Both the position numbers and the translations under genes were made by a program. 46,512 nucleotides of DNA from an uncultured Candidatus Saccharibacteria bacterium (GTDB lineage: Bacteria; Patescibacteriota; Minisyncoccia; Phycocordibacterales; Phycocordibacteraceae): contig CAZJKG010000005.1 of NCBI GenBank assembly GCA_964546795.1, forward strand, positions 1 through 46,512, in the 5' to 3' direction. The notes below the pieces were generated by a model. The model did no database searches. It was not told the origin of the DNA and was given only the letters and a program-made list of their open reading frames with translations. The stretch's first letter is position 1; each line of letters opens with the position of its first letter. Shown here in pieces: positions 17,201-42,660 of this stretch.

Positions 17201-17704
17201 GCCGAAGAGGTGTATGCAAGAGTTAGGAGCGAGAATGATCCAGAAAGCGTTCATCTTGCCGATTGGCCAGCAGTTAAAAGTCATTGGCGACTTTTTGGCG
17301 ATCCTGGAAAGAAGTTAATTACAGAAATGCAAAAAGTTCGCGTACTTGCATCTGCAGCACTGCAACTGCGGCAAAAGGCCGGCGTGAAAGTGCGTCAGCC
17401 GCTTGCTTCGCTAACTATTCCAGAAATGCTTGCCGATGAACTCACCCAGATTCTTGCAGATGAAGTGAACGTAAAGAAGATAGTCACGGGCAAAGAGCTT
17501 TCGCTTGACACGGTACTCACACCAGAATTAATTAAAGAAGGGGATGAACGGGAACTCGCGCGCGCGGTTGCCGAGGCGCGCAAGACAGAAGGATTCTCTC
17601 CTAGGGATACAGTGCGTACCGAAATGCGATCAGAAGGGAAGCATTCAGTTGTTCTCTCGACTGGTCCTGTGCATTTTGACCTCATTCGCGATGTGTCCCG
17701 TTAG
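14297..17704 (+). CDS. ileS: isoleucine--tRNA ligase (type 2) with inserted histidine-phosphatase domain
   Basis: [54 protein letters not shown] insert about 15820-16390. Start 14297 or 14306. Confidence 0.96.
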
Positions 17705-17797
17705 AGGATCTAGCTATCAATTACACACAATGAACTGCAAATATATTTATCGGCTTAATCAGACAGTACCCGCGTTTGCGGCCTGTCTCTAATGGGA
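17696..17797. mobile_element. MITE-like element copy 1
   Basis: TCCCGTTAGAG / CTCTAATGGGA (10 of 11 inverted match); flanks TGTG / TGCG. Confidence 0.6.
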
Positions 17798-18366
17798 TGC
17801 GGTATAAATACGAGACACGCGGCATTGTACTTTCGCGGGCACCTGCCGGGGAAGCGAATGCGTCCATCACGCTTATTACTTCAGGACTCGGTCTTGTGCG
17901 CGCCCGTGCACAAGGCGTCCGGCGGTCCGGTGCCAAACTCGCCGCAGCGCTTGCCACGGGCACTGAGAGCGAATTGGTGCTTGTGCGGGGGAAGGAACAT
18001 TGGCGCATTGCAGGCGCGGTTCTGGGAGAAAATTGGTTCGTACGGTTGCAGAGTCCTTCGTCGCGCGTACGAGCGGCGCGCGTTTCCGGCCTTCTTCTGC
18101 GGCTCGTTCCCGGCGAGGCGCATGACCCCGCACTCTTTACGATTATGAATGGGTTTTTCGAAGCGCTTGTCATGTTTCCCGAGGACGTGCATGAGGCAGT
18201 TGAAGTGCTTGTCGCGCTCCGTGTGCTTGCGGCGCTCGGGCTCGATGCAGGGGAGATACCCGGTGGCATGTCCGCATTCACGCCTCCACTGCTCGCGGCG
18301 ATTATGGAGGAACGCTCAGGGTATATAGCCCGTATCAATCACGGCATCAACGTTTCGGGTCTCTAG
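17797..18366 (+). CDS. recO: DNA repair protein RecO (short form)
   Basis: TRGIVLSR, GEAN, GLGLVRARAQGVRRSGAKL; VLAALG near C-terminus. Confidence 0.85.
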   Translation: MRYKYETRGIVLSRAPAGEANASITLITSGLGLVRARAQGVRRSGAKLAAALATGTESELVLVRGKEHWRIAGAVLGENWFVRLQSPSSRVRAARVSGLLLRLVPGEAHDPALFTIMNGFFEALVMFPEDVHEAVEVLVALRVLAALGLDAGEIPGGMSAFTPPLLAAIMEERSGYIARINHGINVSGL

Positions 18367-18393
18367 ATTCTCACGCGGTATACTGTATATACA

Positions 18394-39474: not shown

Positions 39475-40169
39475 CGAATCAAACACGTTTCTTTGTCGGA
39501 GCAGGCATTATTCTTGTTTTGGTTATTATCGGGATTTGGCAATTCTTTCCGCGCGCGGACACTCTTCAGCCGATCGAGGACCAACTTCAGCCACTGCCTA
39601 TCCAAATTGAGACCGCGACCTCTTCGGCCGCAAAGGCCGTTCTTCCGGATTCTGCAAGCCGTCCGATTGTCCACCCTCTTCCTCTCGCGGAAGGCGACAG
39701 TATCGCATCGTGGGATTTCAAAGGCGCATATGCGGCTAATCTGGAACTTACTGCAAAAGCGCAGAGCGAGATACTCCGCCTCTCCGATCTTCTTATTACC
39801 GCCACTTCGTCGAAAATGATACTTTCCGTCGGCGTCGCGAATCAATACGAGCTTCTTGGCGATGGCAAAAAACAATATGAGTATCTCGGGCGAGCGATAC
39901 TAGCAGATGTCGAGAACGGCCTTCCATTACACAACCTCGGCGTACTTATGGAGCGACTAGGCGCATATAAGACGGCGCGCATCGCGTACGAAAAATCCAC
40001 TCGCGTACAGCCGGGATTCAAATTCTACCACTATGCCTATATAGAATTTTTAACAACGCGGATGAAAGACGATAGGGCAACTATTGAAAAAGCGTTTTCA
40101 GATGCCGAGAAGAGTATCGGCCAAACACCCTATCTCGCTGAGCTTCGTGCCGAATGGGAGAAATCATGA
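39456..40169 (+). CDS. membrane-anchored TPR-like protein
   Basis: N-terminal TM; helical repeats YELLGD..YL.RAI, HNLGVLMERLG..A..AYEKS. Confidence 0.75.
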   Translation: METSNGTNQTRFFVGAGIILVLVIIGIWQFFPRADTLQPIEDQLQPLPIQIETATSSAAKAVLPDSASRPIVHPLPLAEGDSIASWDFKGAYAANLELTAKAQSEILRLSDLLITATSSKMILSVGVANQYELLGDGKKQYEYLGRAILADVENGLPLHNLGVLMERLGAYKTARIAYEKSTRVQPGFKFYHYAYIEFLTTRMKDDRATIEKAFSDAEKSIGQTPYLAELRAEWEKS

Positions 40170-42400
40170 CGGACAAGATTGCGAGAATATTCCCATATTT
40201 TCTTATCGCACCCGCGGTTCTTCCGCTCGTGTACGTAAGCGGTCTTGTGTATCCGTATGTTACGACCAAGACATTTTTACTTCAGGGAATCGGCATTATC
40301 GCAGTCGCCGCATTCGCGTACCTGGCGCTTTCCGGTCGACCGTTCTTTTATCAGCGCCTACGAGATCCGATTAGCTGGATCCCTTCTGCACTGCTTGCAG
40401 TTGCGTATACCGCTTCCCTTGGAGGCCTTGATTTCTATCGAAGCTTCTGGGGCCTTTTTGATCGCGGAGACGGGCTTCTGACGCTCACAATCATCACGGC
40501 CTTTTTCTACCTCGTTCTTATTTTTGCCGACGACATATTTTTAGAACGTCTTATAAAGACCATTGCGACCGTCGCCGGAATTGTTGCCGTTATTGCGGTT
40601 CTGCAATGGATAGAAACCGTCTTTGGCGCTGAATCGTCGTTCTTGCCGCCGATTACCGGGCGCATCGGAAGCACGTTCGGTAATGCGGCATTTCTTGCCG
40701 GCTATCTCGGCATGGCGTTCTTCGTGATTCTCATTGCGTGGAAGGACTCGATCGGCGTTTGGCGCCGGATCTATGCGGCTGCCGCCATCCTGTCGGTACT
40801 CGCGATACTTTTTGCAGCGACGCGCGGGACCATTCTCGCACTTCTTCTCGCTCTTTTTGTCGCGCTCGCGTATGTCGCGTGGAAAGGAGAAGGGAACGAC
40901 CGCCGCTTCGGTCGTTACGGCATCGTCAGCATTCTCTTCCTATGCGCCCTCTTTTTCGGATTCCGCGACCAGCTTGCACACGTTTCTTTTGAGCCGATTA
41001 AACGCATCGCTTCCATTTCGCTTACTGACGGCACAGTCGCGAGCCGCCTCTTCGTCTGGCAGACCGTCGGCGCAGAAGCGCTCCGGCATCCATTGCTTGG
41101 CTATGGCGCCGAACATGTTGCTCGGCTCTTTAACAAGATTTACGATCCTAGCAAGATCGTAGAGCAGTGGTTTGACCGCTCGCATAATGCATTTCTGGAT
41201 TACTTCGCGCAATACGGCGTTGTCGGTCTCGTGCTCTATCTTGCGCTCATCGTTGGGTTCGCTGTATCCGCGTTTCGGCTGTACCGCCGTTCTCTGTTCG
41301 GCCTCACGAATTCCGGCTTGCTTTTCTTGCTTCTTATTCTTACGTATTCGGTACAGAATTTTTTCGTCTTTGATACGCCCGCGTCGCTCTGGCTGTTATA
41401 CGCATTGTTCGCTACCCTCATCGCACTGACTTCGAACACATCCTCTGCCGCTTCCTTGCCCAAGCGCTTGCCGACGTTCGTGTCACCACTCATTAGCACT
41501 ACTTTATTTATTTTGATTATCCCGGTCATCGCGCTGCCGCTGTATGCCAACATCCTGCTCACAAAGGGATATCTCTATCACCTTATTGATGTCAATCGGG
41601 CTAATGCCTATTTTGGGCGCGGTCTCGCACTCGGGACGTACGCCGATCTCGAGTACGGCTATCAGGCCTACAGCATGTACACCGACCATCAAGCAACTCA
41701 GCTCTCGGGAGAAGATCGTGTTGCCGCGTATGAGTATGCGCTTTCGGTGCTAACGGCGAATTTCGAGAAATATCCGTATGATGCGCGAACCGCGACCTAC
41801 CTCGGACATGTCATAGATACGGCGCCGCCGGAAGCGGCGGTAGACGACGCATTTGACGAACAGGTACTCTCCCGTGCGATAGAACTCTCCCCACTGCGCG
41901 CACAAGCGTGGTATATGACGGCGAATATTTCTCTTCGAAAAGCCGATATGCTTTCTCAAAATGATGCAAGAAAAGTAACGTACTTTAAGGAAGCGATAAC
42001 CATACTTGAGGAATATGCGCAGAAAGAAACCTCACTTCCAGTGCCACGCTACATTCTTGCGACGCTCTACTACAAACTTGGCGATACGACGACGGCGAAG
42101 AAATGGGCTGATGAAGCACTACCCCTCTATACCGTACCGGATACGGCAGCAGCGGGGCCGGCCGTGAAGTACTATATAGCTATAGGGGATTGGCGAAACG
42201 CGGCGCGTTTCCTTGCGGATTTGGTTGAAAAGAATCCTTCCAACTACGATGTCCTCTATGATCTTGCGAAAGTGTCCTATCTCGCCGGAGACCTCGCCGC
42301 CGCGGAGCGGATTGTTCAGAAATTGCGTGCGGAGGACCCGGCGATACTCGGGACCGATCAGAATTTTCTTACCGCCATCACTGCGTATGAATCCCGTTAG
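40166..42400 (+). CDS. O-antigen ligase (Wzy_C)/O-oligosaccharyltransferase-like protein with TPR tail
   Basis: ~12 TM; RIGSTFGNAAFLAGY, ATRG, SRLFVW, PLLGYG, DRSHNAFLD; helical C-terminus. Confidence 0.88.
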   Translation: MTDKIARIFPYFLIAPAVLPLVYVSGLVYPYVTTKTFLLQGIGIIAVAAFAYLALSGRPFFYQRLRDPISWIPSALLAVAYTASLGGLDFYRSFWGLFDRGDGLLTLTIITAFFYLVLIFADDIFLERLIKTIATVAGIVAVIAVLQWIETVFGAESSFLPPITGRIGSTFGNAAFLAGYLGMAFFVILIAWKDSIGVWRRIYAAAAILSVLAILFAATRGTILALLLALFVALAYVAWKGEGNDRRFGRYGIVSILFLCALFFGFRDQLAHVSFEPIKRIASISLTDGTVASRLFVWQTVGAEALRHPLLGYGAEHVARLFNKIYDPSKIVEQWFDRSHNAFLDYFAQYGVVGLVLYLALIVGFAVSAFRLYRRSLFGLTNSGLLFLLLILTYSVQNFFVFDTPASLWLLYALFATLIALTSNTSSAASLPKRLPTFVSPLISTTLFILIIPVIALPLYANILLTKGYLYHLIDVNRANAYFGRGLALGTYADLEYGYQAYSMYTDHQATQLSGEDRVAAYEYALSVLTANFEKYPYDARTATYLGHVIDTAPPEAAVDDAFDEQVLSRAIELSPLRAQAWYMTANISLRKADMLSQNDARKVTYFKEAITILEEYAQKETSLPVPRYILATLYYKLGDTTTAKKWADEALPLYTVPDTAAAGPAVKYYIAIGDWRNAARFLADLVEKNPSNYDVLYDLAKVSYLAGDLAAAERIVQKLRAEDPAILGTDQNFLTAITAYESR

Positions 42401-42511
42401 AGGTCAAAACGGCGCGCAATGATATGCTAAGGATAATCAGTATGAGGTCGAACAGTCCATATTATCTTAAAATCGCGTAAGGAAATCTTTGATTTCCTAC
42501 CTCTAACGGGA
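42392..42511. mobile_element. MITE-like element copy 3
   Basis: Perfect 13-bp TIR TCCCGTTAGAGGT / ACCTCTAACGGGA; flanks TGAA / TGAA. Confidence 0.68.
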
Positions 42512-42660
42512 TGAACAATCAAGAAAATAATAATCGTCGCAATACCGAACGGCGCATACTTCCGTTCGTAGTTGAATTCGTGAAGTTCGTCACCGGATTT
42601 GCGGTGATTGTCGCGATCGCACTCCTCGCGCTACATTTTGCAAGCGCCGCGATGCAATAA
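42511..42660 (+). CDS. 49-aa single-TM protein (absent from ORF track)
   Basis: MNNQENNNRRNTERRILPFVVEFVKFVTGFAVIVAIALLALHFASAAMQ*. Confidence 0.6.
   Translation: MNNQENNNRRNTERRILPFVVEFVKFVTGFAVIVAIALLALHFASAAMQ

Follow-up and report, generated by a model that had tools for sequence, protein, structure and literature searches.

Positions 1 to 46,512 of contig CAZJKG010000005.1 (GenBank assembly GCA_964546795.1), the whole 46,512-nucleotide stretch analysed here and hereafter called the window, come from an uncultured Candidatus Saccharibacteria bacterium and contain three short inverted-repeat elements (elements 1 to 3; Table 1) that are inserted in start codons. Our results suggest, with a probability that we put at roughly 0.72, that the three are gene-less copies, of the kind known as MITEs (miniature inverted-repeat transposable elements), of a very small mobile element of the Candidate Phyla Radiation (CPR) that carries one GIY-YIG nuclease. 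A preliminary description, made from the letters of the window, had read them as MITE-like, and this reading gains support from duplications of the target, from empty sites in relatives and from long copies with the same ends that bear the nuclease gene.

The left ends of all three window elements read TCCCGTTAGA and the right ends TCTAA(C/T)GGGA. The terminal inverted repeats (TIRs) are perfect over 14 nt in elements 2 and 3 and match at only 10 of 11 positions in element 1, because its right end reads TCTAATGGGA. The flanks are A-TGTG on the left and TGCG on the right of element 1, A-TGAA and CGAA around element 2, and A-TGAA and TGAA (the latter at 42512-42515) around element 3. Coordinates, ends, TIRs and flanking repeats are therefore as first described, and so are the "mostly unrelated interiors", the pairwise interior identity of the three copies being 0.49-0.58 and within the range of shuffled sequences (mean 0.50, maximum 0.65). 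The accompanying claim that the terminal A of each element regenerates an ATG holds for elements 1 and 3, but in element 2 the rebuilt codon is now ACG.

The three elements belong to a family that is dispersed over the genome. The exact terminal 9-mer occurs 27 times in the 614,725 bases, as compared with about 5 expected by simple arithmetic, and nearly all occurrences form inverted pairs 60-120 bp apart; allowing one mismatch gives no enrichment in the window (10 matches versus 8.7 expected). In total there are 13 clear copies of 62-121 bp on 5 contigs, with four degenerate ones, and elements with these ends were found in 13 of 41 related genomes and, patchily, in 7 of 24 genomes of the same genus, whereas a reversed-pattern control gave no match in the 41 genomes for the short form or in 301 genomes for the long form. 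At either end, ten bases are the same or nearly the same in all 13 copies, and stem positions 11-14 vary between copies while staying complementary within each copy (AAAT/ATTT, GGC/GCC, GGT/ACC, AGTT/AACT, GAC/GTC); 11 of the 13 fold better than all of 200 shuffles. Six copies at different loci form a sub-family with a 9-bp stem extension (CGCGGACGC/GCGTCCGCG), a TCCT bulge and a AATCGGATAGGGTTCG core, with an interior identity of 0.62-0.74 as against a shuffled mean of 0.50, and the same short architecture occurs at other loci in genomes G010, G014 and G005. A role as a conserved peptide was rejected, only 7 of the 13 lengths being multiples of three and the frame from the left ATG getting to the right repeat in only 5 of 13.

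The flanks were read in 73 copies from 6 genomes, namely the 13 of this genome and 60 among the matches listed from five others; 102 further matches in relatives lie outside this set. An exact direct repeat of at least 2 bp brackets 58 of the 73 copies and begins with TG in 57 of these, its length being 4 bp in 39 copies, 3 bp in 11, 5 bp in 4 and 2 bp in 4. The pairs include TGAA, TGAG, TGGA, TGCG, TGTA, TGAT, TGCTA and TGATA; they vary yet match each other, so they represent a true duplication and not element sequence. The base 5' of the left copy (n = 57) is mostly A (49 cases), with 4 G, 3 T and 1 C; the old codon was accordingly ATG, GTG or TTG in 56 of 57, and the right junction consists in every case of the element's A followed by TG. 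In 51 of 57 copies no stop interrupts the 20 codons read in the frame of the rebuilt ATG, as compared with 7 and 22 copies for the other two frames. The element is asymmetric, with CCTA in the right arm two or three bases inside the terminal repeat, and by this marker 33 of the 73 copies have the same orientation as the interrupted gene and 2 the opposite one, 38 being unscorable. For the 13 copies of this genome the flanks are of the form [A/G]TGNN on the left and TGNN on the right, and in 10 of them a long open reading frame (ORF; 112-595 residues) begins exactly at the rebuilt ATG; of the other three, one starts a conserved ORF of 49 residues, another no longer has the ATG, and the third does not sit at a start. 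The genome-wide flanking duplications (TG-initial in 57 of 73 copies) and association with starts that the preliminary description would have looked for are thus both present.

Uninterrupted alleles in relatives identify the insertions as such, and at all three window sites the empty ATGNN start codon reconstructed in the preliminary description was found intact in other genomes. For recO, the gene interrupted by element 1, the best matches in 40 same-genus genomes were compared and 37 of the 40 homologues align from the first residue, and the element is absent from 24 of the 30 same-genus loci read; the usual empty junction is ...CGCG ATGCG GCA TAA, the upstream synthetase-like gene ending inside recO. 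The site is occupied in 6 of the 30 (this genome, G000, and G014, G005, G017, G013 and G010) by elements whose interiors are of at least three unrelated kinds, meaning repeated insertion at this one start codon. The same alleles show ATGCG as the target, the window's left copy having changed to TGTG later. Hopping of ribosomes between the duplicated copies was rejected, the left copy at recO decaying freely (ATTTG in G013, ACTTG in G010). At the site of element 3, 8 empty and 3 occupied alleles were found among 11 loci read of 20 located, and the 49-residue membrane ORF that follows the element is conserved in relatives. Four loci correspond to element 2: one is empty (G001), with an ATGAA start 9 bases behind a TGgTATGCT box, one (G334) is occupied by a variant with C...G ends that rebuilds GTG, and in two the junction was not located. 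Two observations at the element 3 site stand apart. In G017, the site orthologous to 42392 holds two near-identical variant elements (ends TCCCGTTCGAAAT...) in tandem, with TGAA after each, and in G007 (L166) the site orthologous to 42387 reads ATGAATCCCAAC..., with the first four bases of the element end kept beside the start codon, a junction that could be an excision footprint or a product of chance.

The same ends also enclose longer interiors (180-400 bp) in 36 of 301 genomes of the order. Of 30 such loci fetched, 13 are elements of 275-283 bp with a GIY-YIG ORF (72-93 residues; 86 is typical), so that the long copies sought in the preliminary description exist, the gene on board being that of a GIY-YIG nuclease. 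In 10 of the 13, the nuclease frame runs through the right repeat, which encodes its last eight residues (...KRFLSLTG), and stops at the flanking TGA that overlaps the host ATG (ATGA). Because the C terminus is encoded by the right repeat and the stop is the duplicated TGA, gene and ends form one unit. Two same-genus relatives, G014 and G323, contain full-length nuclease copies at ATGAA. The nuclease is a single-domain protein that scores 58-62 bits against Pfam GIY-YIG (cut-off 22.6), and its nearest solved sequence relative is UPF0213 BH0048 (E = 8e-4). A structure model built from a six-sequence alignment (pLDDT 85.7) has its best fold matches in UPF0213 BH0048, At-HIGLE and Slx1 (TM 0.5-0.64, E about 1e-3). 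Five residues that we take to be catalytic on I-TevI numbering (Tyr, Tyr, Arg, His and Glu) do not vary in the alignment.

In the window, the insertions have redrawn gene junctions (Table 1). The isoleucyl-tRNA-synthetase-like gene upstream of element 1 (14264-17704) now ends at the TAG of the element, whereas in empty alleles it terminates after ...IRDAA at a TAA lying inside recO; the recO ORF itself occupies 17797-18366 and has a Pfam RecO_N match. Upstream of element 3, an O-antigen-ligase/TPR gene (40154-42400) is likewise terminated by the element's TAG, and this element contains the hairpin GGAAATC-TTT-GATTTCC (42481-42497), subterminal and separated from the right repeat by TA. At element 2, the membrane-protein ORF now begins at an in-frame ATG at 39456, inside the element, with a gain of six residues, and the box TGATATGCT is likely to be the promoter of this interrupted gene, judging by its sequence and by where -10 boxes lie across the genome. 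A promoter-consensus scan of the three element regions gave 0, 0 and 1 sites, the level of shuffled sequence, and the bases 5' of the rebuilt ATG, read by eye, do not fit a -10 box; an element-borne promoter for a leaderless transcript beginning at the rebuilt ATG is accordingly unsupported. As a separate observation, the synthetase-like protein has a His_Phos_1 domain (residues 524-674) inserted between its catalytic parts.

Table 1. Insertion features of the window and two related loci elsewhere in the same genome (G000)
Feature	Position	Strand	Remark
Old recO start and left duplication copy (A-TGTG)	17691..17695	+	Original ATGCG; left copy mutated since
Element 1, 102 bp, between A and TG of the recO start codon	17696..17797	+	Right end mutated to TCTAATGGGA
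TAG within left terminal repeat of element 1	17702..17704	+	New stop of upstream gene
Rebuilt recO start: last A of element 1 and right copy TGCG	17797..17801	+	
TGATATGCT, extended -10-like box right behind terminator 39306-39350	39349..39357	+	Read from sequence
Old start and left copy (A-TGAA), membrane-protein gene	39366..39370	+	G001 empty allele TATATGAATAAA
Element 2, 104 bp, 14-nt perfect terminal repeats	39371..39474	+	Holds replacement ATG 39456-39458
Decayed rebuilt start ACG and right copy CGAA	39474..39478	+	
Old start and left copy (A-TGAA), conserved 49-residue membrane protein	42387..42391	+	
Element 3, 120 bp, ends intact	42392..42511	+	
TAG within left terminal repeat of element 3	42398..42400	+	New stop of upstream gene
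Rebuilt ATG and 49-residue ORF from it	42511..42660	+	Last A of element 3 and TG of right copy
Putative sister-family element, locus L097	G000 C3:96099-96406 region		
Putative sister-family element, locus L094	G000 C2:93082-93390 region		

The copies of this genome are probably old relics, since no cognate nuclease gene was found, ends are mutated in several copies (e.g. TCTAATGGGA, TCCAGTTAGA, TCTAATAGGA), four duplications are imperfect and identity within the sub-family is only 0.62-0.74. Assembled contigs from the likely source sample and two sister samples were compared with positions 39000-43000 and none joins precisely across an element, a result that is silent on present-day mobility; contig joints near 42406-42493 fit other copies with nothing but the ends in common.

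The translation signals of the host offer a rationale for the occupation of start codons. Among 391 crude gene starts, Shine-Dalgarno (SD)-like motifs precede 13%, compared with a background of 10%. A TANNNT box has its first base at -12 in 68 of these starts and at -13 in 37, as against 3-19 at other positions, and about half of the -12/-13 boxes have TG upstream. This peak places the start of transcription at or beside the A of the ATG, as in leaderless mRNAs, and the statistics imply a host without an SD signal and with mostly leaderless mRNAs, the promoter-proximal genes being leaderless. According to a survey in print, only 48% of Parcubacteria had a detected anti-SD motif (PMC9297842). 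The commonest start context is ATGAA (84 of 391), and ATGA as a whole accounts for 162. In the reading that we propose, the full element is about 277-283 bp long and has the same TIRs on either side of one 86-residue single-domain GIY-YIG nuclease of the Slx1/UPF0213 type. It enters a start codon between the first and the second base and duplicates the 3-5 bases that follow (TG and one, two or three others), and its last base, A, forms a new ATG with the duplicated TG, also at sites whose old codon was GTG or TTG. Two stops serve to close the gene upstream, the TGA of overlapping genes (ATGA) and the TAG of the left terminal repeat. Where the element is complete, the frame of the nuclease ends at the duplicated TGA (ATGA) and ribosomes would be handed back to the host gene; both the expression from the start codon and this hand-over we infer from the arrangement of frames. 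For a gene without promoter or signal of its own, the start codon of a leaderless, SD-less host would be the sole site where it could be expressed without killing the host gene. The nuclease itself would be the mobilising enzyme, acting on a hairpin or cruciform of the repeats and moving the MITEs in trans. On a broader and more tentative reading, which we hold at somewhat less than even odds, the copies would be relics of a new class of prokaryotic transposable element, the smallest self-contained one to date, whose sole protein, an 86-residue Slx1-like nuclease, acts on the cruciform or hairpin of the element's own ends. Such an element would parasitise the starts of leaderless, SD-less bacteria, use the transcription and initiation codon of the host gene for its own expression, return the ribosomes via AUGA and rebuild or even improve the start (GTG or TTG to ATG).

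Whether such an element targets start codons or only survives there had been left as alternatives in the preliminary description, and the present data settle this in part, copies being enriched at starts beyond what survival alone would give while off-start copies also exist. The genome contains 1863 ATGAA sites, 127 of them at possible starts and 447 outside deep coding sequence, from which we roughly estimate that ~22% of copies would be expected at starts by survival alone; the observed figures are 11 of 13 copies here and 51 of 57 overall. In addition, the same two start codons have been hit repeatedly by different sub-families. Both points argue against the view, unlikely in our opinion, that insertion occurs at any TG or ATGAA-like pentamer and that copies persist only where the terminal A repairs the gene. 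This view would be in agreement with a genome that is ~87% coding (crude ORF call), so that most insertions would be lethal, with ATGAA being the commonest start context anyway, and with the copies that lie off starts. One of these, at C6:30926, occupies a TGAA on the opposite strand inside a pilin-like gene, which restarts from an ATG made by a C-to-T change in the right repeat. In G027 (L072-L084), copies are mostly off starts and in both orientations, often with 5-bp duplications such as TGATA or TGCTA inside TGnTATAAT-like sequences, and several lie at TGATATAAT-type sequences. Survival selection surely contributes, the estimate of tolerated sites being rough, but we rate it as insufficient for the whole explanation, and we conclude that insertion between N and TG(A)(A) is intrinsically preferred and that selection strengthens the pattern. 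Open promoter complexes as the target were rejected, a -10-like box at -12/-13 accompanying 16 of 57 insertion sites and, in matching frequency, 105 of all 391 starts.

Several findings weigh against the reading of the elements as MITEs of a nuclease-bearing parent. We know of no demonstration of a GIY-YIG protein acting as a transposase, a duplication of variable length (3-5 bp) is unusual for one enzyme, and no fold match of the modelled nuclease was obtained at E <= 0.001. The opposite-strand insertion in the pilin-like gene does not fit, nor does G027, where just 2 of the 7 copies with a duplication have an open rebuilt frame and a duplication is lacking in 6 of 13. The ATG of the nuclease is in frame with the host start in 5 of 11 full-length copies, with one-third expected by chance (a stop lies 4-16 nt before the nuclease ATG in 3 others, and neither holds in 3), so that a coupling of the two starts is not distinguishable from chance and was discarded. 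Two mini-versions, palindromic, 36 bp long and sharing the core ends, are inserted in frame in genes of this genome, one directly after codon 2 of an alaS-like gene (G000 C1:25795-25830; MT-PVRKLEDSRSNG-TS) and one inside a tsaE-like gene (G000 C3:93549-93584; PIRKIEESRSNG). Finally, no nuclease gene with TCCCGTTAGA ends was found in this genome, of which the assembly is 94.7% complete, and none with these ends in G033, which has 20 MITE copies. Six small GIY-YIG ORFs are present here, none with TCCCGTTAGA ends. Two of the elements concerned, of ~308 bp, have quite different inverted repeats of ~25 bp (ACCTGACACAC...) around an 89-residue GIY-YIG ORF; one is flanked by ATG on both sides and the other abuts a tRNA gene. 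These ACCTGACACAC elements can nonetheless be read as a sister family of the start-codon element, the full-form nuclease being 51% identical to theirs with a different C terminus.

The lack of a nuclease gene in this and another MITE-rich genome (G000 and G033), together with small GIY-YIG genes that lie beside tRNA genes without repeats in this genome, might suggest that a host or phage enzyme moves the elements and that the GIY-YIG gene is a passenger or a homing-type nuclease. We consider this improbable. The KRFLSLTG terminus supplied by the right repeat and the stop at the duplicated TGA in 10 of 13 copies mark gene and ends as a single unit, in the sister family a nuclease that is 51% identical goes with other repeats and ends in another C terminus, and 277 bp leaves no room for another ORF, other transposase families in the genome not having been searched for. 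Alternatively, the short elements could have decayed in place, as remnants of full-length copies that lost the nuclease gene and never moved as short forms; the ends and orientation common to short and long forms, the missing cognate nuclease in this genome and the mutually unrelated interiors of the three window copies are what this would lead one to see. It is quite unlikely all the same, because six copies at different loci share one short architecture with interiors 0.62-0.74 identical, the same architecture recurs at other loci in G010, G014 and G005, and full-length copies lack the long inverted duplication of the right end. Stable hairpins adjoining start codons could also be taken for operator pairs or a structured RNA leader with a host function. 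The orthologous genes of most relatives, however, have no element and an uninterrupted junction, the elements have flanking duplications, unrelated interiors and a patchy distribution (7 of 24 same-genus genomes), and an Rfam scan of the window returned two tRNAs only, with no match at the elements. The empty sites and the variable duplications exclude operator pairs, and a host function in general is hardly credible. Gene-less copies of a minimal nuclease element therefore remain the reading that we favour.

Other repeats were seen alongside the family. A 109-bp element at 46266-46374, with perfect 15-nt inverted ends (CCCCGTACCACAACT...) and CGAA on both flanks, lies a short way ahead of a 23S rRNA gene whose apparent 5' end is at the end of the contig, and possibly represents another small insertion family. 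An inverted repeat at 32349-32433, with 29-nt arms that are 90% complementary and 27 nt apart, falls between 32313 and 32485, in a divergent intergenic region. The GC-rich palindrome CCTGCCTGCCGGCAGGCAGG was seen more than once, at L161 (G001), in the flank of L096 and on C3 near 93400. It sits in frame within the small membrane ORF of G001 and within this genome's tsaE-like gene, and looks like one more family of tiny palindromic inserts.

The elements illustrate how selfish DNA can live in the essential operons of extremely compact genomes without breaking genes, rewriting the junctions instead: the last residues of the upstream gene are replaced, the start is rebuilt and sometimes, as at 39456, a new N terminus arises. 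Each insertion is also a natural experiment on start-codon context, and the family thereby offers access to the way in which translation begins in CPR bacteria that have lost the SD mechanism. If the proposed mechanism is true, a nuclease family not known as a transposase joins the enzymes that move bacterial DNA, in an element of ~277 bp, far smaller than known insertion sequences.

Bacterial MITEs such as the Correia elements of Neisseria are short and gene-less, have TIRs and a target duplication, occur in many copies, derive from an autonomous parent that has the same ends and are co-transcribed with their neighbours. The elements described here resemble them, being shorter than ~300 bp without a conserved ORF, with TIRs, duplications, empty sites and a same-ended element of autonomous type. 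Known MITE parents encode DDE-type transposases, whereas the only candidate enzyme here is an 86-residue GIY-YIG nuclease, and insertion into start codons with rebuilding of the ATG is, to our knowledge, not a feature of Correia-type MITEs. The IS200/IS605 group, with its palindrome-associated derivatives and REP/RAYT systems, shares hairpin recognition, asymmetric ends, a fixed orientation to a short asymmetric target and abundant gene-less derivatives; its members use a Y1 HUH transposase and insert 3' of a fixed tetra- or pentanucleotide without target duplication. An assignment to this group was rejected, the sole ORF here being GIY-YIG and not Y1 HUH, the element being too small for a transposase of that kind and the insertions following a 3-5 bp duplication rule (TGCG/TGCG, TGTA/TGTA, TGGA/TGGA). 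Mycobacterial MIRU lie between operon genes and contain small frames that overlap the stop and start of the neighbours, as here, but they are tandem direct repeats without inverted ends. The Rickettsia palindromic elements (RPEs) are palindromic inserts tolerated in frame inside genes and recall the two 36-bp in-frame versions of this genome; we know of no start-codon preference or nuclease-bearing parent for RPEs. Integron attC sites (5'-RYYYAAC ... GTTRRRY-3') follow cassette ORFs in clusters of one orientation beside an integrase. An attC-like site was dismissed, since the order here is GTTAGA ... TCTAAC and the copies are dispersed on both strands among housekeeping genes.

As regards the enzyme, Slx1 (6seh), At-HIGLE (7wme) and UPF0213 BH0048 (1zg2) are the best, if weak, fold or sequence matches. 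The titles of Slx1-Slx4 structures name branched and 5'-flap DNA as substrates, which would suit a cruciform or hairpin formed by the repeats; these relatives differ in being cellular repair enzymes, Slx1 with additional domains and a partner. A full-text literature search found no published description of start-codon insertion by such elements, in line with the preliminary description, which knew of none. The nearest system is that of the Ssn nucleases, known from Neisseria and further bacteria, which are small GIY-YIG enzymes that go with hairpin repeats, called NTS/SRM (Chenal et al., Nat Commun 2025; PMC11893778). The discussion of that paper also cites the IS200/IS605 and REP/RAYT group. 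The terms "start codon", Patescibacteria and Candidate Phyla do not occur in the main text of that paper, and its passages on the repeats describe no target duplication or empty sites (PMC11893778). The Ssn proteins form the CDD clade cd10448; the nuclease described here is a single-domain GIY-YIG protein whose nearest solved relatives are UPF0213 and Slx1. Ssn repeats are self-contained hairpins of 20-50 nt, whereas here the two ends pair as TIRs (PMC11893778); the element ends are not hairpins on their own, and some short copies have a subterminal hairpin beside the right end. The role proposed for Ssn is the control of transformation through cutting of single-stranded DNA, site-specifically and close to the repeat (PMC11893778). 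Very small size and a defined hairpin partner in DNA could also make such a nuclease useful as a tool, as the Ssn authors argue for their own enzymes (PMC11893778). The likeness is otherwise close: as described there, a single-domain GIY-YIG gene is bracketed by a repeat that is also present many times without the gene, the directionality of the repeat matters, and the authors themselves compare the layout of gene and repeats to an insertion sequence (PMC11893778).

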